The notes under the pieces are model-generated. The model had not been told where the DNA came from, made no database searches, and saw nothing but the letters and a program-made list of their open reading frames with translations. From a virus (lineage: Duplodnaviria; Heunggongvirae; Uroviricota; Caudoviricetes): a stretch of DNA of 14,741 bases. Both the position numbers and the translations under genes were made by a program. The stretch is taken from the IMG/VR virus record IMGVR_UViG_2657245664_000011. One strand, 5' to 3'. Shown piece after piece: positions 1-12,121 of the stretch (position 1 is its first letter; each line of letters begins with the position of its first letter).

Positions 1-1053
1 TTACGGGGTAATGCCAACCGCTGCCGCCACTTTGTCGCCACTTGGCAGCGTTGCCAGAGGATTGAAACGGAGCGCCGTTTCTAGATGATCCGGTGCCAGA
101 TGTGCGTAACGCATAGTCATTTTTATATCGTGGTGTCCGAGAATTTTTTGTAAGGCCAGAATGTTTCCACCCGACATCATGAAGTGCGCCGCAAACGTAT
201 GGCGCAGAACGTGTGTGAGTTGACCGCGAGGGAGCACGATAGACGTTTTTTCCATCACGGATAAAAATTGAAAATAGCAGTCTGTGAAGAAATTGAACCC
301 ATCAAGCGCCATGATCTCTTCGTAAAGCTCTTTACTGATAGGGATGCTTCTGTTTTTCTTCCCCTTCGTTCTGACAAAGGTAATTCGGTATTTGGTCACC
401 TGTGAGCGGGTAAGATTTACGGCTTCACGCCAGCGTGCGCCTGTGCTTAAGCATATCTTAACTACCAGTGCCAGAATTGGGTCCTGACGTTTGCAATCAG
501 CCAGCAATTCAACAATCTGCTCATGGGTAAGCCATGCCATCTCTTTTTCTGCGATGGTGAATTTTCGCATGTTCTCCAGTGGGTTCGGATACGACCATTC
601 GCCCAGACGGGATAGTTCGCTAAAAACACTACTTAGATAGCTTTGCTCCAGGTTAATGGTGACCGGGCTTGCTCCTTTCTTCCATTTCTCGCTGAAGTAG
701 ATCTCGCCTGTCAGGCGTTTATCTCGATAGTGGGCAAACATTTTAGAGGTGAGATCGGTTGCAAGAGGATTGCCCAGAGCGTCAACCATCAACAGCAATT
801 TGTCATAGACATGCTGCCCAGCTGTCAGAGATTTACCATGTAGTTTGAACCATAGCTCAACCACGTCTTTCAGTGTTCGACGATCCACTGATTCACCCAG
901 CCAGGGCTTTGCTTCGGTTTCTTCCATCGTGTGGCGCTCAAAAGCCAGTGCTTCGCCTTTGGTGGCGAATTGTTTACGCACACGACGCCCACTTCGTCCG
1001 GCGGGGTAACATTCGCAAAGCCATTTCCCTGTGGTTAGTTTTCGTACTGCCAT
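1..1053 (-). CDS. int: Tyrosine site-specific integrase, P2/186 family
   Basis: 350-aa ORF whose C-terminal region carries the tyrosine-recombinase signature (LRHTFA ... GHHDIKMTMRYAHL, with the catalytic Tyr). It sits at the prophage end, co-oriented with the repressor. The stop codon is at positions 1-3, so the gene is complete. Confidence 0.9.
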   Translation of the reverse strand: MAVRKLTTGKWLCECYPAGRSGRRVRKQFATKGEALAFERHTMEETEAKPWLGESVDRRTLKDVVELWFKLHGKSLTAGQHVYDKLLLMVDALGNPLATDLTSKMFAHYRDKRLTGEIYFSEKWKKGASPVTINLEQSYLSSVFSELSRLGEWSYPNPLENMRKFTIAEKEMAWLTHEQIVELLADCKRQDPILALVVKICLSTGARWREAVNLTRSQVTKYRITFVRTKGKKNRSIPISKELYEEIMALDGFNFFTDCYFQFLSVMEKTSIVLPRGQLTHVLRHTFAAHFMMSGGNILALQKILGHHDIKMTMRYAHLAPDHLETALRFNPLATLPSGDKVAAAVGITP

Positions 1054-1080
1054 AAAAAGCCCTCATATCAGAGGGCTAAA
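1054..1080 (-). terminator. Hairpin followed by a T-run immediately upstream of the int ATG; candidate intrinsic terminator for the cargo gene and/or an RBS-sequestering structure
   Basis: On the minus strand the sequence reads AGCCCTC-TGATAT-GAGGGCT-TTTTT-ATG (7-bp stem, 6-nt loop, T5). The GAGGG in the 3' arm is also the only plausible Shine-Dalgarno for int. Confidence 0.35.
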
Positions 1081-1135: not shown

Positions 1136-2812
1136 CTAAGCAACATGTAGTTCATCGTTGGCGGAAGTGGCTGCTTTGCGCTCCTGCTCAATAGCTAGAG
1201 ACTCTCTATATTCTTTCGCCTCTGCAAACATTGTCCAGTGGGCGTTGATGTTCATGTCTTCAATAACTGATTTGATTTCTTTTAAATTTACGTTAAAAAA
1301 CTCTTTTCGTGAGTTAATTTTATTGACCTGCTTTTCGTTGAAAACTTTATGCAGATGGTTTTCTAATGATGGTGCATCATCACTATAAATCATCGCATGA
1401 ACATCGAACGAAAAAGGAACACTAGCATCTCCGAGTTCACGAACACGATCAAGTGGTTCAAGGCGGCGTGTCATTCCAATTTTATATACATCTTCGCCAA
1501 ATGAACCAATATTACTAATGATATAGACGTGGCCTGATCTGGTTTGTTGAGCCATAGAAATAGCTCGTTGATTTTTAGCTTCAGCTTCTTCATATTTTAA
1601 CTGTAGTTCAGCTATTTTTTGCTCTAAAGCTAAGCGTTGTTCTTCATTTGCAAGCATAAGTTCTTTCGTTGCTTTATTTATAGCTTGCTGAATAGCTTTT
1701 TCTTCTTTTTCAGCTTCTTTTATCGCTTTTTCATATTCTCTACGAGCTCTTTCCTCTTCACGAAGCTGTTCTTTAATCCTTCTTTGCTCTTCTTTTTCTT
1801 CGAGCATAATTTCATTAACTGCTACACCCCATTTTAGCTCGTTGAGTCTTGCCTGAAGATAGATGTCACTTATTTTTGCGGACCTAAAGGCAGAGCCATT
1901 GTAATTTACTAGTTGAAATGCATCTTTTATTTCTTGGGAAAGTTTTCCAAAATTGTTGTGTTTGACTTTTGATAAAATACTGTCAACTCTTCCATTGAAG
2001 GCATCCAAAACAAAGTTTATGGCAGTATTACGCCTGTTTTGCTCAACATAATCACACGAAGCAGCTTTATTAGTTTTTATTAATGATTTGGTTAACTCTC
2101 TGGCTTTTTGTAATTCCTTGCCTGCATCTGTAAATTCATAATTTTCTGCCAGCTCATCAAGTACACTACGGTTAGGGATGATCCATTCATCACCATAACC
2201 TTCAATTTTATTTTTCATTGATTTTGCAACTGCTTCATATTTTTCTGCAAACTCTTTAGCTTCATATGCTGAACCAGCAATCTCCTTTGCTCTTTCTTCT
2301 GCATCAGAAATAATTTTTACTGCATTGTCATTAGCATTTGAGATTAGCTCATTTGCTTTATTATTAGCATTATCAAGACGTTCTTTGGCTTTCAGGCGTG
2401 CATCGCGAGCGTCTTTGGTGATTGCTATAGCTTCGCTATTAGCGTTGCTTATTGTCATCTGAGCTTGATAATTTGCTTCGTTTACTGTTTTAGCCGCCTT
2501 AATTTGGGCTTCATCTATTTTTTGCTTGGCTATTGAGTCCGCATTTTTTATCTTATTCTCTGCATCCATTACTGCGCTGTGCAATTCTTCGTATTGCCAC
2601 AATGGTGCTGCTCGCCCTTCAAGCTCTGATAATTCTCGTACGGTCTGTGCTAGTTTTTCTTGATTTTCAATCAGTTGGTTAGAAAGGGCTATGTTGTTAG
2701 CTGTCAGGTTATCTATAGCCGCTTTGTGTTTTTTACTTTGTTTAAATAATATTACAGCTAGAACAGGGGCGAGAAATGCTAATAAGAGTATAACGATGGC
2801 AAATGAATTCAT
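1136..2812 (-). CDS. Prophage cargo protein: N-terminal transmembrane anchor, long coiled coils, a central DUF4041-like region and a C-terminal T5orf172/GIY-YIG-like domain; candidate defense or exclusion factor
   Basis: 558-aa ORF with an AAGGA ribosome-binding site 7 nt upstream of the ATG. The N-terminus (FAIVILLLAFLAPVLAVILF) is a hydrophobic helix. Long K/E/A/N-rich heptad-like stretches follow. The C-terminus (GHVYIISNIGSFGEDVYKIGMTRRLEPLDRVRELGDASVPFSFDVHAMIYSDDAPSLENHLHKVFNEKQVNKINSRKEFFNVNLKEIKSVIE) matches the T5orf172 pattern as I recall it. The gene is visibly more AT-rich than the flanking phage genes. Confidence 0.8.
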   Translation of the reverse strand: MNSFAIVILLLAFLAPVLAVILFKQSKKHKAAIDNLTANNIALSNQLIENQEKLAQTVRELSELEGRAAPLWQYEELHSAVMDAENKIKNADSIAKQKIDEAQIKAAKTVNEANYQAQMTISNANSEAIAITKDARDARLKAKERLDNANNKANELISNANDNAVKIISDAEERAKEIAGSAYEAKEFAEKYEAVAKSMKNKIEGYGDEWIIPNRSVLDELAENYEFTDAGKELQKARELTKSLIKTNKAASCDYVEQNRRNTAINFVLDAFNGRVDSILSKVKHNNFGKLSQEIKDAFQLVNYNGSAFRSAKISDIYLQARLNELKWGVAVNEIMLEEKEEQRRIKEQLREEERARREYEKAIKEAEKEEKAIQQAINKATKELMLANEEQRLALEQKIAELQLKYEEAEAKNQRAISMAQQTRSGHVYIISNIGSFGEDVYKIGMTRRLEPLDRVRELGDASVPFSFDVHAMIYSDDAPSLENHLHKVFNEKQVNKINSRKEFFNVNLKEIKSVIEDMNINAHWTMFAEAKEYRESLAIEQERKAATSANDELHVA

Positions 2813-2832
2813 TTTAAAATCCTTTTACTATA

Positions 2833-3429
2833 TTAATTCGAGACTATTGTACTTCTTATACAAGCAACCACTTCAATATCAGAAAATGCACATTCAAAGC
2901 TATTCTCTGCTGTTGTAATTTTAATCATTCCTTTAGGAAGCCTTGTGATTTTTCGAATGGAATAGGTTCCGTCGATATTGATTAACCAGTTTCCATCAAG
3001 TACTTCAGAAAATTTTTGATCACAAATGTATGTGACGAGTCCATCCTGAACAACAATTGGTGATGAAAGGTTTGCAGGAAGAAATGATGAATCGAAGACA
3101 TATGAACCGTCTTCAATCATTTTGCCTGCGGCAAGGCGAAACTTAACAAGCTCTTCTGTAGCTGCTGTCAGCGAGCTTTGCTTAAGGCCTTGTCCGGTAG
3201 TTAACCATTTGAGGGAGGTTCCTGTTTCAAGAGCACATTGGATTATCCAGTCAGCAGGAAATGTATCCCGCAAATACCTGTTCGCTAGTGTGCTTTTTGA
3301 TACTTCCAAGTGATCAGCTAAAGCCTGTCGTGTCGTAAAGCCATAGGCTTCGACTAATCGCTCAATCGCAGCCTTACCACCTTTATTGGGATTTATTTTG
3401 ATCTCACTTGGGTACTTTGATGTTGACAT
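2833..3429 (-). CDS. cI: CI-like immunity repressor (phage 186 CI type, N-terminal HTH plus C-terminal oligomerisation domain)
   Basis: 198-aa ORF divergent from apl/cII. The N-terminal pattern EAYGFTTRQALADHL...LANRYLR...CALETG..LKWLTTGQG is the 186 CI-type HTH as I recall it. Position and length are close to 186 CI. Confidence 0.8.
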   Translation of the reverse strand: MSTSKYPSEIKINPNKGGKAAIERLVEAYGFTTRQALADHLEVSKSTLANRYLRDTFPADWIIQCALETGTSLKWLTTGQGLKQSSLTAATEELVKFRLAAGKMIEDGSYVFDSSFLPANLSSPIVVQDGLVTYICDQKFSEVLDGNWLINIDGTYSIRKITRLPKGMIKITTAENSFECAFSDIEVVACIRSTIVSN

Positions 3430-3524: not shown

Positions 3525-3746
3525 ATGACCCCTAACATTTCAATAACTCTGAATACGCCACACGTCACAATCGAGCGTTATAGCGAACTTACTGGTCTTT
3601 CAATCGACACAATCAACGATATGTTGGCGGATGGTCGCATTCCTCGGCATCGTCTTCGTAAAGACAAGAAAAGAGAAAAGGTAATGATCAACCTTGCTGC
3701 TCTTACCGTTGATGCACTTACTGATTGCAATGTTGTATTCAACTAG
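3525..3746 (+). CDS. apl: Apl/Cox-like excisionase and transcriptional regulator
   Basis: 73-aa ORF that is the first gene rightward of the switch. A small basic protein with an HTH-like segment ([29 protein letters not shown]). The ATG at 3525 is preferred over the upstream TTG of the ORF track because that extension would run through the promoter and into cI. Confidence 0.7.
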
Positions 3747-3778
3747 TTCCATTTTGGGATACATCAGAGGTGTCGACC

Positions 3779-4288
3779 ATGTTTGATTACCAAGTTTCCA
3801 AACATCCACATTTTGATGAAGCCTGTCGTGCATTCGCACTGCGCCACAATCTGGTGCAACTGGCAGAACGTGCGGGCATGAATGTGCAGATTCTGCGGAA
3901 CAAGCTGAACCCAGCTCAACCTCATTTATTAACCGCACCAGAAATCTGGCTGCTTACCGATCTGACTGAAGATTCAACGTTGGTAGATGGTTTTCTGGCA
4001 CAGATTCATTGTCTGCCATGTGTACCGATTAATGAGGTAGCAAAAGAGAAACTGCCGCATTACGTCATGAGCGCAACTGCAGAGATCGGGCGTGTTGCAG
4101 CAGGTGCGGTATCTGGTGATGTAAAAACTAGTGCCGGTCGTCGTGATGCTATCAGCAGCATTAACTCTGTAACACGACTGATGGCTCTGGCTGCTGTTTC
4201 ATTGCAAGCCCGTTTACAGGCTAATCCTGCGATGGCGAGTGCAGTTGATACCATGACTGGCCTTGGTGCTTCATTCGGTTTGCTGTGA
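3779..4288 (+). CDS. cII: CII-like activator of lysogeny establishment (186 CII type)
   Basis: ATG at 3779 with an AGAGG ribosome-binding site 8 nt upstream gives a 169-aa product starting [21 protein letters not shown], which closely resembles 186 CII as I recall it and matches its length. Confidence 0.8.
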
Positions 4289-4592: not shown

Positions 4593-4687
4593 AGGATGGG
4601 ACGTTTTTACGGGGAGAGCAGGTTAAAGAGACGATACGAAAAAATGTATCTCCTCTTGAGCGTTACCGTAAGAACAAAGAACGATAG
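4463..4687 (+). CDS. Hypothetical early protein
   Basis: 74-aa ORF with a GGAG ribosome-binding site and natural-looking composition. It overlaps the preceding ORF by about 130 nt in another frame. Confidence 0.5.
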   Translation: MYAAESEVVYQFRYRGESYSVPEGDLLCCYPSLSGDGSYFFTLKDGTFLRGEQVKETIRKNVSPLERYRKNKER

Positions 4688-4709
4688 CTGCGTTTGGGGG
4701 ATATGAAGT

Positions 4710-5051
4710 ATGGCAATTAATGGCGCTGCAGCAACTGTTCCATTAAGCCCCGGTGAACGCCTGAATGGACTTAATCACATTGCGGAGTTAAGGGCGAAAG
4801 TTTTTGGCCTGAATATTGAGTCAGAGCTTGAGCGGTTTATTAAAGATATGCGTGATCCACGGGATATCAATAATGAACAAAATAAACGGGCACTGGCTGC
4901 CATATTCTTTATGGCAAAAATTCCAGCTGAACGTCATAGCATCAGCATTAATGAGCTGACCACTGACGAAAAGCGGGAGCTGATTAAAGCAATGAATCAT
5001 TTTCGTGCAGTGGTGAGCTTATTTCCCAGACGGCTAACCATGCCGAATTAA
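4710..5051 (+). CDS. Hypothetical early protein
   Basis: 113-aa ORF co-oriented in the early operon with a G-rich ribosome-binding site upstream. Confidence 0.55.
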   Translation: MAINGAAATVPLSPGERLNGLNHIAELRAKVFGLNIESELERFIKDMRDPRDINNEQNKRALAAIFFMAKIPAERHSISINELTTDEKRELIKAMNHFRAVVSLFPRRLTMPN

Positions 5052-5118
5052 CCAACTAATGAAATTAATGGCGTAAACCCGCCGGGCATCCCTTTATCTA
5101 AATTCAGGAGAATTGATT

Positions 5119-5352
5119 ATGCGTAATATTGAAACCCTCACGACTAAAACCGGACCGGATGACGCAGGGCTTAATATTTTACTGACAGAGGCTCGTCTGG
5201 AAGAACGCCGGGCAAGGGCTGAAGCAATGGCTGCTCGCCTTGATAGCCTGGCGTGTCATATCTCATCCCGCCAGCTAAACCACGTGGAAGCGGCAGAACT
5301 GCTGCGCGTGACTGCTGAAGCAATCCAGAACGAAGCGCAGGAGATCCACTAA
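5119..5352 (+). CDS. Hypothetical early protein
   Basis: AGGAG ribosome-binding site 8 nt upstream of the ATG at 5119. Its stop overlaps the next start (TAATG), suggesting translational coupling. Confidence 0.5.
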   Translation: MRNIETLTTKTGPDDAGLNILLTEARLEERRARAEAMAARLDSLACHISSRQLNHVEAAELLRVTAEAIQNEAQEIH

Positions 5353-5579
5353 TGGCTGATGCAATGGATCTCGTACAGCAGCGCGTTGAAGAAGAACGCC
5401 AGCGCCATATCCGTGCAGCCCGTGCCAAATCACCGGGCGTGTCACGCGTACTTTGCATTGAATGTGAAGCGCCAATTCCGCCAGCACGACGCCGCGCCAT
5501 TCCGGGAGTGCAGCTTTGCATTACCTGTCAGGAAATCGCAGAACTGAAAGGCAAACATTACAACGGAGGTGCTGTATGA
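5352..5579 (+). CDS. TraR/DksA-family C4 zinc-finger protein
   Basis: 75-aa ORF with CIECEAPIP...CITCQ, two CxxC pairs at the spacing typical of phage TraR-like proteins. Confidence 0.7.
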   Translation: MADAMDLVQQRVEEERQRHIRAARAKSPGVSRVLCIECEAPIPPARRRAIPGVQLCITCQEIAELKGKHYNGGAV

Positions 5580-6433
5580 GCACCATCCTGAAATGGGCGG
5601 GAAATAAAACCGCCATTATGCCAGAACTGAAAAAATACCTTCCTGCTGGCCCGCGACTGGTTGAACCTTTCGCGGGTTCCTGTGCTGTGATGATGGAAAC
5701 GGATTATCCCAGCTATCTGGTTGCGGATATTAATCCTGATTTAATCAACCTCTATAAAAAGGTTGCCGCTGATTGTGAATCGTTTATATCTCGCGCCAGA
5801 GTTTTATTTGAGATCGCAAACAGGGAGGTGGCTTATTACAACATAAGGCAGGAGTTTAACTGCTCAACTGAAATTACTGATTTCATGAAAGCGGTATATT
5901 TCCTGTATCTCAATCGTCACGGTTACCGTGGTTTATGTCGCTATAACAAGAGCGGGCATTTCAACATTCCCTACGGTAATTATAAAAATCCGTATTTCCC
6001 TGAAAAAGAACTTCGCACATTTGCAGAAAAAGCCCAGCGAGCAACGTTTATCTGCGCCAGCTTTGATGAAACGCTGGCGATGTTGAAGGCGGGAGATGTG
6101 GTGTATTGCGATCCGCCATATGACGGTACGTTTTCCGGCTATCACACTGATGGTTTCACTGAAGATGACCAGTATCACCTGGCATCCGTTCTTGAACATC
6201 GGTCATCAGAAGGACATCCGGTCATTGTTTCTAACAGTGACACATCCCTGATCCGTTCGCTGTATCGCAATTTTACTCACCACTATATCAAGGTAAAACG
6301 CAGCATCGGTGTGGCAGCTGGCGAGGGTAAATCAGCAACAGAAATCATTGCTGTTTCCGGGCCGCGCTGCTGGATGGGATTTGATTATTCGCGTGGCGTG
6401 GATAGTTCTGCCGTGTACGGAGTACGTGCATGA
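5576..6433 (+). CDS. dam: Dam-family N6-adenine DNA methyltransferase (orphan, phage-encoded)
   Basis: ATG at 5576 with a GGAGG ribosome-binding site. Carries ILKWAGNK, an AdoMet-binding motif (EPFAGSCAV) and the catalytic DPPY. Start and stop overlap the neighbours as ATGA, so it is translationally coupled between the TraR-like gene and gene A. Confidence 0.85.
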
Positions 6434-7956
6434 GTCATGCCGATATGAACAACTGCTGCGGCTTTAACGAGGCTGCCGCAGCATTCTCATGGAACAGCCC
6501 GAAAAAGGCCATTAACCCTTATCTGGACCCGGCGGAAGTTGCGCCGGTTTCTACGCTTTCAAACCTGATCACTCTGTACGCTGCCGATAACGAGCAGGAA
6601 CAGTTGCGCCGCGAGGCACTGAGTGATCAGGTCTGGGAGCGTTATTTCTTTAATGAATCACGTGATCCTGTCCAGCGCGAAATGGAGCAGGATAAGCTCA
6701 TTAGCCGGGCAAAGCTGGCGCATGAGCAGCAGCGTTTTAATTCAGACATGGTCATTCTGGCGGACGTCAACGCCCAGCCTTCCCATATCAGCAAGCCGCT
6801 GATGCAACGTATTGAATACTTCAGCAGCCTGGGCAGGCCAAAGGCTTATTCCCGCTATTTACGTGAGACGATTAAGCCATGTCTGGAACGACTGGAGCAT
6901 GTACGCGACAGTCAGCTATCTGCATCTTTTCGCTTTATGGCAAGCCATGAAGGGCTGGACGGCCTGCTGATCCTGCCTGAAATGAGTCAGGATCAGGTGA
7001 AACGCCTGTCCACCTTGGTAGCTGCGCATATGAGTATGTGCCTTGATGCAGCTTGTGGTGATTTGTATGCCACCGATGACGTTAAGCCAGAAGAAATCCG
7101 CAAGACATGGGAAAAGGTGGCAGCGGAAACCCTGCGTCTGGATGTCATCCCACCTGCGTTTGAGCAACTCCGTCGGAAAAGAAACCGCCGTAAACCCGTG
7201 CCGTATGAACTCATTCCGGGTTCGCTGGCGCGTATGTTGTGCGCCGACTGGTGGTATCGGAAATTATGGAAGATGCGTTGCGAATGGCGGGAAGAGCAGT
7301 TGCGCGCTGTTTGCCTGGTCAGCAAAAAAGCATCTCCTTATGTCAGCTATGAAGCCGTGATGCATAAACGTGAGCAGCGCCGTAAGTCGCTGGAGTTTTT
7401 CCGTTCTCATGAACTGGTGAACGAAGACGGCGACACGCTGGACATGGAGGATGTGGTAAACGCCAGCAGCAGCAACCCTGCGCATCGCCGCAATGAGATG
7501 ATGGCCTGTGTTAAAGGTCTGGAGCTTATCGCGGAAATGCGCGGTGACTGCGCCGTTTTCTACACTATCACCTGTCCGTCGCGTTTCCATTCCACGCTAA
7601 ATAACGGCAGACCAAACCCGACCTGGACAAACGCGACGGTAAGACAAAGCAGCGATTATCTGGTCGGCATGTTTGCTGCATTTCGTAAGGCGATGCACAA
7701 AGCCGGGTTGCGCTGGTATGGCGTGCGGGTGGCTGAGCCGCATCATGATGGCACAGTTCACTGGCACCTGTTGTGTTTCATGCGCAAAAAAGACCGCCGT
7801 GCCATCACTGCATTACTGCGTAAGTTTGCCATCCGTGAAGACCGCGAGGAGCTGGGCAATAACACTGGGCCGCGCTTTAAGTCTGAGTTGATTAAGCACT
7901 GTGTGTCAGGCTGGATGGCGTGGAAAAATAGGTTTGTCGCCATTTTTTGTGAATAG
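6430..7956 (+). pseudogene. A: Replication initiation endonuclease gpA (rolling-circle HUH type), C-terminally truncated
   Basis: 508-aa ORF containing the HUH motif (TVHWHLLCF). It ends in a short atypical tail that overlaps the inverted terminase fragment. P2/186 A proteins are about 700-760 aa, so the C-terminal part is missing. Confidence 0.75.
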
Positions 7957-8764
7957 CCATACCGGAAGCCACTTTGCGCAGCTCCTGGAATTTCGGTATC
8001 CAGAAATATTCATCCAGATACAGGTTGCCGTGGTAACTCTGGGCCGTGCGGGCATTGGTGCCGAGGAAGTACAGCGTGGCCCCGTTAGGAAGCACCATCG
8101 GATCGCCTTTCAGCTCCACCTCCACTTCTTTGGCGAAGTCGATGATGTACTGCTTAAAGACGTGGGCCTGAGCCTTGCTGGCGGAAAGGAAAATCTGGTT
8201 ACGCCCGGTTAGCAGGGCGTCAATCAGGGCTTCACGGGCAAAATAGAAGGTCGCGCCGATCTGGCGTGACTTCAGCAGGTTGCGGATGCGGTTGGTTTTT
8301 CCGGCTTCCCACCAGTGGCGCTGGTAGTTGAACATGGAGGAATGGAAGATTTCTTCCAGCTTCTCAATCTGTTCATCGGTGAAAACGTTCTTTTCCGGCT
8401 GACGGCGCGGGCCTTTGTTGCGGTTGGCGACGTTAGGGTTTAAGTCGGCTTCGTTGCCGCCATTGTTAAACTTGCCGATCCGCGCATGGCGCTCCGACTG
8501 GCGCGCCAGCAGGTCAATCTCTTTGAAATCTTTCCCTTCTTTGTGCTCCTTCATAATGAGCTGGCAGTAGCGTGCGGCGGTGGTGAGCTGCATCTGATCC
8601 AGCGGCCCATAGTCACCCCACTTGTCGCGTTTTTTCCAGCTGTGAACGGTTGCAACTTTCTCGCCCAGCATTTCAGCAATGCGGGCTACGCGGTATCCCT
8701 GAAAGTACAGCAGCATGGCCTGCCGACGGGGATCGAGATCTGCGGGTGTCAGTGTGGTGTTCAT
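7892..8764 (-). pseudogene. P: Terminase ATPase (large subunit) gpP, N-terminal fragment only
   Basis: 290-aa ORF with P2 gpP-like N-terminus and Walker-type motifs ([24 protein letters not shown]). A full gpP is about 590 aa, and the nuclease half is absent. Its orientation is opposite to gene A, as in P2. Confidence 0.8.
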
Positions 8765-8813
8765 GGCACAAACCTACAGCCTTGAATGAAGGCTTTCCCC
8801 GCCTGCGGTTTGT

Positions 8814-9998
8814 GTGGTTGCGGGTTTACTTACTGCACCGTTGTCATCTTTGCGCCGCACGGCATCACTGACGGGAAATGTCATGAAAACTGTAGCAGGT
8901 GCGCCGGTTGCACTTTTGCGGTCTGGATTATCCGGTTTACGTGCTGTTGCTGTGATGTTTATGAATCCTCTGGCGGTACTGCGCGGTGGACTGGTCGCCG
9001 CAGGCACGGTGCTGCGAGTACTGGCATCTGGTCCACTGGCGATGCTGCGCGTTGCCCTGTATGCCGTATCTGGTCTGTTAGGTGCTCTGCTCAGTCCGAT
9101 AGGTCTTGTGGTTACTGCACTGGCGGGCGTGGCGCTGGTTGTCTGGAAATACTGGCAACCCATCACCGCATTTCTTGGTGGCGTGGTGGAAGGATTCAAA
9201 GCGGCGGCAGGTCCCGTCAGTGCAGCATTCGAACCACTTAAGCCTGTGTTTCAGTGGATTGGCGACAAAGTGCAGGCGCTCTGGGGCTGGTTTACTGATC
9301 TGCTGACGCCCGTTAAGTCGACCTCTGCCGAACTGCAGAGCGCAGCGGCAATGGGGCGACGATTCGGGGAGGCACTGGCGGAAGGGCTGAATATGGTTAT
9401 GCATCCGCTGGACTCCCTGAAATCTGGCGTTTCCTGGTTGCTGGATAAACTCGGCATTGTCAGTAAAGAGGCTGCAAAGGCGAAACTGCCGGAAAGCGTG
9501 ACGCGTCAGCAACCTGCGACGGTGAATGCAGACGGTAAAGTGATGATGCCATCGGGTGGTTTTCCGTCATGGGGATATGGCTTTGCGGGGATGTATGACA
9601 GCGGCGGCTATATCCCGCGTGGGCAGTTTGGCATCGTCGGTGAAAACGGGCCGGAAATTGTTAACGGCCCGGCAAATGTGACCAGCCGGAGAAATACAGC
9701 TGCACTGGCTGCCGTTGTTGCCGGAATGATGGGCGTTGCTGCCGCGCCAGCAGAGCTTCCACCGTTGCACCCTTTGGCACTTCCCGCGAAAGGTGGAGAA
9801 GCAATTGTGAGTCGCGCAGCCACTGTGCCGCTCGTTCAACGGATTGAGGCACCGACGCAGATCATCATTCAGACGCAGCCAGGACAAAGTGCGCAGGATA
9901 TTGCGCGGGAGGTGGCACGCCAGCTTGATGAACGTGAACGCAGGCTGAAGGCAAAAGCCAGGAGTAACTACAGCGATCAGGGGGGATACGACGCATGA
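8814..9998 (+). pseudogene. T: Tail tape measure protein gpT, C-terminal fragment
   Basis: 394-aa G/A/L-rich ORF whose stop overlaps the gpU start (ATGA). The frame opens only at 8790, a few bases from the terminase fragment start, and the first possible start is a GTG. P2 gpT is about 815 aa. Confidence 0.7.
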
Positions 9999-11886: not shown

Positions 11887-11972
11887 CGCTGCCGCCATTT
11901 TGTCGCCATCGTTAAAAAACAGTGCTTCTAACATCATGATTTTAAACAGCATAAATTTCAGGCAACAAAAAA

Positions 11973-12009
11973 CCCATCAACCTTGAACCGAAATGGCGGG
12001 GTTGATGGG
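11973..12009. other. Inverted repeat CCCATCAACC / GGTTGATGGG (10-bp stem, 17-nt loop) in the ogr-ybjL intergenic region; possible terminator or part of attR
   Basis: Read directly from the sequence. It lies between convergent ogr (+) and ybjL (-) at the expected prophage-chromosome boundary. Confidence 0.3.
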
Positions 12010-12121
12010 CTCCACAAAATGGGGACATCAAAGAAAAGCAGTGGCACTAATTAAGACTGATGCCCTGCGGAAAAGTTCTGCGGTTGTGCAAAAAAATTTC
12101 ATTTTCAGGGCAACTTCAGTT

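Follow-up and report, generated by a model that had tools for sequence, protein, structure and literature searches.

The question raised by this locus is what a gene encoding a membrane-anchored, coiled-coil protein with a nuclease-like C-terminus is doing between the repressor and integrase genes of a 186-like prophage. The gene lies in a stretch of 14,741 nucleotides (hereafter the window) from the Caudoviricetes record IMGVR_UViG_2657245664_000011, and its product is identical to RefSeq WP_021574262.1. Sequence comparison places the protein in the SNIPE (PD-λ-1) family of anti-phage proteins, which has already been described, and we put at roughly 0.8 the probability that it acts as a protein of this kind. 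The PADLOC PD-Lambda-1 models match residues 106-551 with E = 2.4e-120 (400.7 bits) and E = 7.9e-117, and in BLASTP the reference SNIPE, the PhiR26_1 protein of ECOR26 (RCP76574.1), is 50% identical over 293 aa (residues 265-555, E = 5e-77). Furthermore, RefSeq carries the identical protein under the names "DUF4041 domain-containing protein" and "SNIPE associated domain-containing protein", and PF13250 is currently listed in Pfam as SNIPE. The preliminary description could not tie the protein to a named system, but such a system evidently exists, and since PADLOC, Pfam and the RefSeq PGAP annotation already flag this exact protein, the gene is to be regarded as ordinary and not as new. A literature search for the accession WP_021574262.1 gave no match, and in PHROGs the protein is placed in phrog_1847, a family without assigned function.

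Several other assignments were considered and rejected. The label SMC or "chromosome segregation ATPase" corresponds to an NCBIfam SMC_prok_A score of 15.5 bits (cut-off 729.4), which reflects the coiled coil only, and Pfam found no ATPase domain in the protein. DivIVA/Wag31 reaches 22.3 bits (cut-off 260) and is confined to the helical region 35-193 (NCBIfam), and the V-ATPase subunit E match is likewise a sub-threshold coiled-coil match in NCBIfam. PADLOC PDC-S57 has the T5orf172/GIY-YIG domain in common with the window protein (E = 4.5e-20, residues 424-546), but the match comprises only profile positions 3-115 of 212, about half of the profile, inside the nuclease domain and without the transmembrane, coil and DUF4041 parts, and it is far weaker than that to PD-Lambda-1.

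PD-λ-1 was found in 2022 (PMC9519451) and its mechanism was explained by Saxton et al., Nature 2026 (PMC13190303). According to the available text of the latter, the founding member of the family has been validated by experiment as an anti-phage system made up of one gene; its product, a GIY-YIG nuclease of the inner membrane, cuts siphovirus DNA while the genome is being injected, and has a topology established by PhoA/LacZα fusions, ManYZ as its membrane partner, and a DUF4041 domain that binds DNA as well as the siphovirus tape measure protein, while the E414A substitution abolishes both defence and nuclease toxicity (PMC13190303). For proximity labelling in that study TurboID was joined to ManZ, since a fusion of SNIPE itself to TurboID did not function (PMC13190303). 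The earlier idea of a single-gene defence carried by a prophage is in good agreement with these properties. It is further reported that in 59% of SNIPE homologues a single transmembrane helix is predicted among the first 70 residues, and that the N-terminal ManYZ and DUF4041 tape-measure associations are variable specificity features and not strict family criteria (PMC13190303).

The window protein resembles ECOR26 SNIPE in the order of its parts (transmembrane helix, helical region, DUF4041, linker helix and GIY-YIG/T5orf172 domain), with domain coordinates shifted by 70 residues, and both are single-gene systems borne by prophages in E. coli (Table 1).

Table 1. Features of the SNIPE-family locus, in coordinates of the window.
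Feature	Position	Strand	Basis and remarks
P2/186-type integrase gene	1..1053	minus	Pfam Int_N, Phage_integrase; WP_000290937.1; directly downstream of the SNIPE-family gene
Terminator-like hairpin AGCCCTC-TGATAT-GAGGGCT and T-run, touching the int ATG	1053..1077	minus	Sequence; putative function
SNIPE / PD-λ-1 family gene	1136..2812	minus	Intact 558-aa ORF, ATG start
GIY-YIG (T5orf172/MUG113) nuclease domain, residues 424-530	1223..1543	minus	Pfam, AF2
Glu484 codon (equivalent of SNIPE catalytic E414)	1361..1363	minus	Alignment mapping; codon checked
Glu/Lys/Arg-rich linker helix, residues 336-423	1544..1807	minus	AF2
Globular DUF4041 (PF13250) domain, residues about 203-335	1808..2206	minus	Pfam, AF2
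Helical, coiled-coil-like N-terminal region, residues 24-202	2207..2743	minus	AF2 helices, periodicity
Single N-terminal transmembrane helix, residues 4-22	2747..2803	minus	Kyte-Doolittle
Shine-Dalgarno AAGGA	2820..2824	minus	7 nt 5' of the SNIPE-family gene ATG
186-type CI repressor gene	2833..3429	minus	Pfam Phage_CI_repr, Phage_CI_C; directly upstream of the SNIPE-family gene

The putative membrane anchor, FAIVILLLAFLAPVLAVIL, has a Kyte-Doolittle mean of 3.16 over its 19 residues, and no other 19-residue segment of the whole 558-aa protein exceeds 1.6, in accordance with the one N-terminal hydrophobic helix that had been proposed. Since no more than three residues stand before the helix and KQSKKHK directly follows it, we infer an N-out/C-in topology, which fits the positive-inside rule as well as the SNIPE layout. 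In the region that follows, AlphaFold2 (AF2) predicts unbroken helices at 2-68 and 71-202, residues 29-200 contain 20% Ala, 12% Glu, 10% Lys and 10% Asn, and the hydrophobic periodicity of 3.5-3.67 residues exceeds that of 499 of 500 shuffles, all of which is consistent with the suggested Asn/Ala/Lys/Glu-rich coiled coil of about 150 residues; matches to ATP synthase subunit b and DivIVA are weak only. This segment is the fastest-diverging one among the enterobacterial orthologues, identity over residues 29-100 is just 13% even inside the subfamily of long proteins, and the N-terminal region varies across the whole SNIPE family, of which residues 24-202 are the variable "adapter" part.

In the central and C-terminal parts, too, the domains named in the preliminary description were recovered, namely a DUF4041-like region, a second coiled coil and a T5orf172/GIY-YIG domain. 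The Pfam DUF4041 match covers residues 267-322 (E = 3.1e-12; 46.6 bits, gathering score 27), AF2 places helices and short strands at 217-335, and many positions within residues 175-334 are invariant among 59 homologues. A second long helix is predicted at 316-423 (AF2), after which Pfam finds T5orf172 (residues 427-520, E = 3.2e-17) and MUG113 (residues 443-520, E = 3.7e-20), and all three Pfam matches are above their gathering scores. The VYKIGMTRR motif is located at residues 442-450; E484, the counterpart of the catalytic E414 of SNIPE, is invariant in 59/59 homologues, and so are Y430, K444, R449, R450, H472, N497, N500 and E504. The C-terminal domain is modelled with a GIY-YIG fold in which the catalytic Glu is intact. 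The full-length AF2 model is of moderate confidence (pLDDT 74.8, pTM 0.36), with low values at 198-214 and 451-466, and when PDB sequences were searched with the profile of the family, no solved relative was returned, only weak coiled-coil matches to ATP synthase subunit b and MutS2.

The resemblance to the reference is however unevenly distributed, since identity amounts to 67% in the nuclease, 50% in the linker and 27% in the DUF4041 core, and BLASTP gives no pairwise alignment of residues 1-264, in an N-terminal region that is about 70 aa longer in the window protein. Furthermore, three positions at which mutation altered tape measure binding differ between the two proteins, W257, E223 and N250 of the reference corresponding to K327, S292 and Q320, and whereas the reference gene is found in a lambdoid prophage beside ren, the window gene lies between cI and int in a 186-like myovirus prophage. 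Because residues 1-264 cannot be aligned to the reference, association with ManYZ is not to be assumed for the window protein, and since both the N-terminal helical region and the tape-measure-facing DUF4041 surface differ, the membrane partner and the phage spectrum may differ as well.

[quoted passage not shown] The susceptible phages in the reference system are siphoviruses, and it is from this system that we infer the target range and nuclease activity of the window protein. The abortive infection that the preliminary description gave as one option would instead entail that infection frees or activates the tethered nuclease, leading to degradation of host DNA and death of the cell. It is in agreement with this notion that SNIPE without its transmembrane segment is toxic via chromosome cleavage, from which it follows that the nuclease is able to attack host DNA (PMC13190303). 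SNIPE is nevertheless a direct defence in which DNA is cut at injection and infected cells survive and grow at high MOI, unlike those of the abortive-infection control PD-λ-3 (PMC13190303), and given that the anchor, DUF4041 and nuclease layout is kept in the window protein, an abortive toxin seems highly unlikely. Superinfection exclusion, the other suggestion made at that stage, comes closer insofar as it acts at entry, but SNIPE works by DNA cleavage, and membrane depolarisation by SNIPE is not described in the available text (PMC13190303).

The gene order int, SNIPE-family gene, 186-type cI, cII, fil, dam and gpA is that of a 186-like Peduoviridae early region. The gap between the cI stop codon and the SNIPE-family gene is 20 bp, and a promoter scan of the minus strand found no sigma-70-like promoter in this interval. 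In the record of phage 186, cI and int are annotated as the pL lysogenic operon, and as no promoter was found, it is from the 20-bp spacing and the phage 186 analogy that we consider cI and the SNIPE-family gene to be probably on the same lysogenic transcript. By virtue of this position in the cI-int operon, expression in the lysogen would probably be constitutive, and host and prophage would be guarded against other phages. Rfam and tRNA scans gave no match inside the gene; the Rfam scan placed RybB elsewhere in the window. The cI-int slot is empty in 186, RE-2010 and SEN8, and holds a DUF2511 gene in PSP3 and a 349-aa unknown in 4LV2017. Since these other cargoes gave no PADLOC match, we do not claim the slot as a defence hotspot.

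A lysogenic operon beside cI is furthermore a classic position of an exclusion gene, and together with the divergent N-terminal region and DUF4041 surface this could be taken to mean that the protein excludes P2/186-like myoviruses or other non-siphovirus phages and is not a siphovirus defence. Such a role is in poor agreement with the reference SNIPE, which works via siphovirus tape measure proteins and protected against no myovirus and no podovirus of the BASEL collection (PMC13190303). Homoimmune phages are moreover blocked by CI immunity already, and close homologues exist outside prophages too, so that exclusion of myoviruses or other non-siphovirus phages appears very improbable.

The history of the gene bears on two further possibilities. 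With a GC content of 37.0% (GC3 27%) it is indeed more AT-rich than int (48.9%, GC3 51%) and the rest of the prophage (51.7%), as had been observed, but it is not unique in this respect, for the adjoining cI is likewise AT-rich (40.2%, GC3 32%). The separate acquisition that had been deduced from this composition is, at least as a recent event, argued against by the facts that a Klebsiella orthologue occupies the identical cI-gene-int slot and that synonymous sites are saturated between the two; the arrangement is old in the 186-like phage lineage. Phage homing endonucleases can contain T5orf172/GIY-YIG domains, and a selfish, free-standing enzyme of this kind without any defence role might explain an AT-rich gene in a slot that phage 186 leaves empty. 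The transmembrane anchor, coiled coil and DUF4041, for which homing has no need, however account for about 420 of the 558 residues, the protein matches a validated defence family over its whole length, and the position has been stable between E. coli and Klebsiella phages whose copies are saturated at synonymous sites, and we regard a homing endonuclease as extremely improbable.

Deletions have reduced the prophage in the window to a remnant, in which the capsid genes and most tail genes are missing, along with half of gpA and a portion of the terminase gene, and one might accordingly suspect that the SNIPE-family gene is a silent or decaying passenger, intact as an ORF but unexpressed or non-functional. 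Against this, the ORF retains its full length and recurs at 100% identity in many genomes, and comparison with the Klebsiella orthologue (pN 0.097, pS 0.775, given in place of dS because synonymous sites are saturated in most segments) indicates strong purifying selection. The context of int, cI and Shine-Dalgarno sequence is likewise intact, and the retention of immunity and defence together in remnants is consistent with selection for the module, all of which makes a mere passenger very unlikely.

The closest relatives of the window protein are long (about 545-565 aa) DUF4041/T5orf172 proteins of Gammaproteobacteria, which align with it over essentially their full length, at 83-100% identity inside Enterobacteriaceae and about 50% elsewhere. 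They occur in Klebsiella, Citrobacter, Salmonella, Enterobacter, Halomonas, Shewanella and Aeromonas and in the phages Klebsiella phage KP12 and Escherichia phage vB_EcoM-813R9, and are uncharacterised entries that have often been given the wrong name, "chromosome segregation ATPase" or "V-type ATPase subunit H"; public phage records bearing the former label need correction. Whereas the window gene is prophage cargo flanked by the core phage genes cI and int, the homologues in Aeromonas and Shewanella stand alone on the chromosome among unrelated neighbours, and both kinds of neighbourhood agree with a gene that would work on its own. The discussion of the SNIPE paper also names Zorya, Kiwa and the moron-encoded superinfection exclusion protein HK97 gp15 (PMC13190303). 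These are similar in acting at the inner membrane during genome entry, and HK97 gp15 is prophage-encoded like the window gene, but they are either multi-protein or lack a nuclease, whereas the window protein has a GIY-YIG nuclease domain of its own, and Pfam and PADLOC searches found no sequence or domain relation to them.

The value of the locus as a discovery is small, as the system has been known since 2022 and its mechanism since 2026, and routine tools flag the exact protein. The subtype is nonetheless at least as common as the studied one (164 versus 131 of 5,426 complete E. coli genomes), and it is found throughout Enterobacteriaceae. Somewhat short of even odds, we would tentatively view it as a long-N-terminus subtype of 186-like prophages with an inner-membrane partner other than ManYZ and a different, K327-linked phage range, possibly including phages that the reference misses; if so, a gene placed in the cI-int lysogenic operon and still kept by decayed prophages would amount to a domesticated immunity module. 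Since the subtype is common in E. coli and widespread in Klebsiella, Salmonella and Citrobacter, it is of relevance to the prediction of host range in phage therapy, and its divergent N-terminal adapter and DUF4041 surface provide a natural test case for the published specificity idea.

The 558-residue protein (RefSeq WP_021574262.1) encoded between the integrase and CI repressor genes had been tied to no named system in the preliminary description; in PADLOC-DB, both PD-Lambda-1 models match residues 106-551 (E = 2.4e-120 and 7.9e-117). PD-λ-1 (RCP76574.1, 500 aa) emerged from a functional selection in E. coli ECOR26 (Vassallo et al. 2022, PMC9519451), its gene lies in phage PhiR26_1, annotated as "PD-lambda-1", and the protein, since given the name SNIPE, has been the subject of a detailed mechanistic study (Saxton et al., Nature 2026, PMC13190303). 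The system is already known: it is named, mechanistically characterised and annotated automatically, the RefSeq names being "DUF4041 domain-containing protein" or, newer, "SNIPE associated domain-containing protein", and precomputed Pfam labels listing PF13250 as "SNIPE". BLASTP aligns residues 265-555 to the reference SNIPE at 50% identity (E = 5e-77); identity is highest in the nuclease (67%), lower in the linker helix (50%) and lowest in the DUF4041 core (27%). The first 264 residues give no pairwise alignment with the reference. The published PD-λ-1 domains, DUF4041 at 197-252 and T5orf172 at 357-448, correspond to those of the window protein with a 70-residue shift. The reference catalytic residue E414 aligns with E484, which like the other conserved nuclease residues checked (Y430, K444, R449, R450, H472, N497, N500 and E504) is invariant in 59 homologues.

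The preliminary description was right about the reality of the gene and about its architecture. Residues 4-22 are the sole hydrophobic segment (Kyte-Doolittle 19-residue mean 3.16; at most 1.6 elsewhere), in keeping with the single N-terminal helix proposed, and the suggested coiled coil of roughly 150 residues corresponds to an Ala/Glu/Lys/Asn-rich stretch at 29-200, for which AlphaFold2 models two long helices (2-68 and 71-202) with a hydrophobic periodicity of 3.5-3.67 residues that exceeds 499 of 500 shuffles. The second coiled coil is a long helix at 316-423 in the same model, and the central DUF4041-like region and the C-terminal T5orf172/GIY-YIG-like domain are recovered by Pfam, DUF4041, T5orf172 and MUG113 all scoring above their gathering scores. 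The labels 'chromosome segregation ATPase' (phage records ON470620.1, OM835953.1, KP836356.2 and MW221967.1) and 'vacuolar-type H+-ATPase subunit H' (JGI records) are coiled-coil artefacts, since the Pfam search finds no ATPase domain and the SMC and DivIVA profile scores are far under their cut-offs. A selfish homing endonuclease is an unlikely identity, since anchor, coil and DUF4041 take up some 420 residues and the family match spans the whole length of the protein.

Features of the window (nucleotides) and of the SNIPE-family protein (residues)
Feature	Position	Strand or molecule	Basis and remarks
P2/186-type integrase	1-1053	-	Pfam; flanks SNIPE gene
Terminator-like hairpin	1053-1077	-	7-bp stem, 5 GC pairs, then TTTTT; abuts integrase ATG
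SNIPE-family ORF	1136-2812	-	558 codons, ATG start
AAGGA ribosome-binding site	7 nt upstream of SNIPE gene ATG	-	Sequence
186-type CI repressor	2833-3429	-	Pfam; flanks SNIPE gene
RybB sRNA gene	11964-12042	-	Rfam RF00110, 105 bits
DUF4041	267-322	Window protein	Pfam E = 3.1e-12
T5orf172	427-520	Window protein	Pfam E = 3.2e-17
MUG113	443-520	Window protein	Pfam E = 3.7e-20

Experiments by Saxton et al. (PMC13190303) show that the reference SNIPE sits in the inner membrane, its N-terminus facing outwards and most of the protein lying in the cytoplasm, that its DUF4041 domain binds DNA and is needed for defence, and that without its transmembrane segment it becomes toxic, cleaving the chromosome in an E414-dependent manner. 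Phage DNA is cut during injection and not after prophage induction, the infected cells survive, and siphoviruses are blocked whereas the myoviruses and podoviruses tested there are not. Since anchor, DUF4041 and linker are all present in the window protein and its nuclease is intact, the protein probably shares this mechanism (we put the probability at about 0.8), and it would then, anchored in the membrane, cut phage DNA during injection and leave the infected cell alive. The notion of an abortive-infection or exclusion effector can thus be kept as far as a probable defence role is concerned, in view of the family match, but abortive infection appears to be contradicted by the direct-defence phenotype of the family. 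Exclusion of P2-like phages would find no support in the reference spectrum, which is without the tested myoviruses.

The phage target range of the reference should not be transferred to the window protein. The N-terminal region is described as the part of SNIPE proteins where conservation is lowest and length varies most, and may be a specificity adapter (PMC13190303), and the window protein fits this picture: residues 29-100 are only 13% identical even to full-length relatives as against 71% in the nuclease, residues 1-100 are 60-72% identical among enterobacterial orthologues with a core at about 90%, and pN against the Klebsiella orthologue is 0.20 for residues 1-100 and 0.05 for the DUF4041 region 175-335, a four-fold difference. 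The substitutions W257R and E223K improved binding of SNIPE to the Bas14 tape measure protein (PMC13190303); the equivalent residues here are K327 and S292, and long-type relatives (about 545-565 aa) mostly carry Lys or Arg at both positions, which agrees with the remark in the same paper that such substitutions are common in SNIPE homologues.

At 37.0% GC (GC3 27%) the gene is indeed more AT-rich than the integrase gene (48.9%) and the remainder of the prophage (51.7%). The adjacent cI is AT-rich too (40.2%, GC3 32%), and the low-GC block therefore comprises the whole immunity-plus-defence module. Separate acquisition, as a recent event, does not hold up: the Klebsiella orthologue occupies the same cI-gene-int slot, and the overall pN of 0.097 and pS of 0.775 against it show strong purifying selection and argue for an old arrangement. 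Apart from 5,945 bp that the window lacks, its sequence is identical to that of E. coli CPE35; this deletion brings a truncated gpA and a fragment of the terminase gene together at 7893-7895. The CPE35 prophage itself has already lost its capsid genes and the greater part of its tail genes, and the element in the window is therefore a prophage remnant, located between rcdA and rybB/ybjL. That the SNIPE gene is a dead passenger of this remnant is unlikely, since its reading frame is intact, it is under purifying selection and it is kept in prophage remnants; int and cI are intact as well. The remaining early genes are organised as in phage 186, with a cox/apl-like gene, cII, fil, DUF5347, DUF2732, TraR, dam and gpA. 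At 6430-9998, gpA (508 of ~804 aa) is fused to the 290-aa terminase fragment, which is joined in turn to a tape measure protein fragment (junction ~8764-8820), and no capsid, portal, sheath or lysis genes are left in the window prophage. The RybB gene lies just past ogr at the right end, adjoining ybjL, which fits an attachment site at or near rybB. The gpA-portal region of P2 is a known defence hotspot; its cargo differs among intact relatives (L003, 22914-27081; ON470620.1, 3856-5007), with a PD-(D/E)XK nuclease protein and hypotheticals in one and a Hypoth_Ymh-domain protein in another, and it is deleted from the window prophage.

At 90% DNA identity or more, the gene is found in 164 of 5,426 complete E. 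coli genomes, chromosomal in all, and reference-type SNIPE in 131 of the same set; in one lineage the latter is split by IS5 (NZ_CM144251.1, NZ_OZ392478.1; ~3693445-3696146). Proteins of 558 aa with 83-100% identity occur in Citrobacter, Salmonella, Klebsiella, Enterobacter and related genera, and relatives of about 50% identity in Halomonas, Shewanella, Aeromonas, Pseudoalteromonas and other Gammaproteobacteria. Phage records, among them those of Marinitoga viruses, contain further homologues. When 1.84 billion cluster representatives were scanned exhaustively with HMMER, 3,368 matched at E <= 1e-3, 1,409 of them at E <= 1e-30. Two 'Synechococcus' phages (Ssp-JY37, PP438427.1, 2908-4575; and OM868080.1) carry a full-length homologue. 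It is most similar (87-91% identity) to proteins of Vreelandella/Halomonas and to metagenome proteins without a label, which makes the cyanobacterial host given for these phages doubtful. In Aeromonas and Shewanella the homologues stand alone on the chromosome, consistent with a self-sufficient single-gene system.

In phage 186 cI and int are adjacent and together make up the pL lysogenic operon (phage 186 record annotation). Here the SNIPE gene starts 20 bp after the cI stop codon and has no recognisable promoter of its own, from which we infer co-transcription with cI in lysogens; the hairpin before int could terminate this transcript or modulate int translation. Homology of the int module with Klebsiella phage 4LV2017 ends at 1064, within the hairpin. 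The cI-int junction holds a DUF2511 gene in PSP3 (orf28, 3570-3908) and in 4LV2017 a 349-aa protein (gp02, 1851-2900) with no Pfam or PADLOC match; it is empty in RE-2010 and SEN8, and RE-2010 has a 401-aa unknown protein just after int (4653-5858). Such cargo of related phages, in the slot or just after int, may represent further accessory genes expressed in lysogens.
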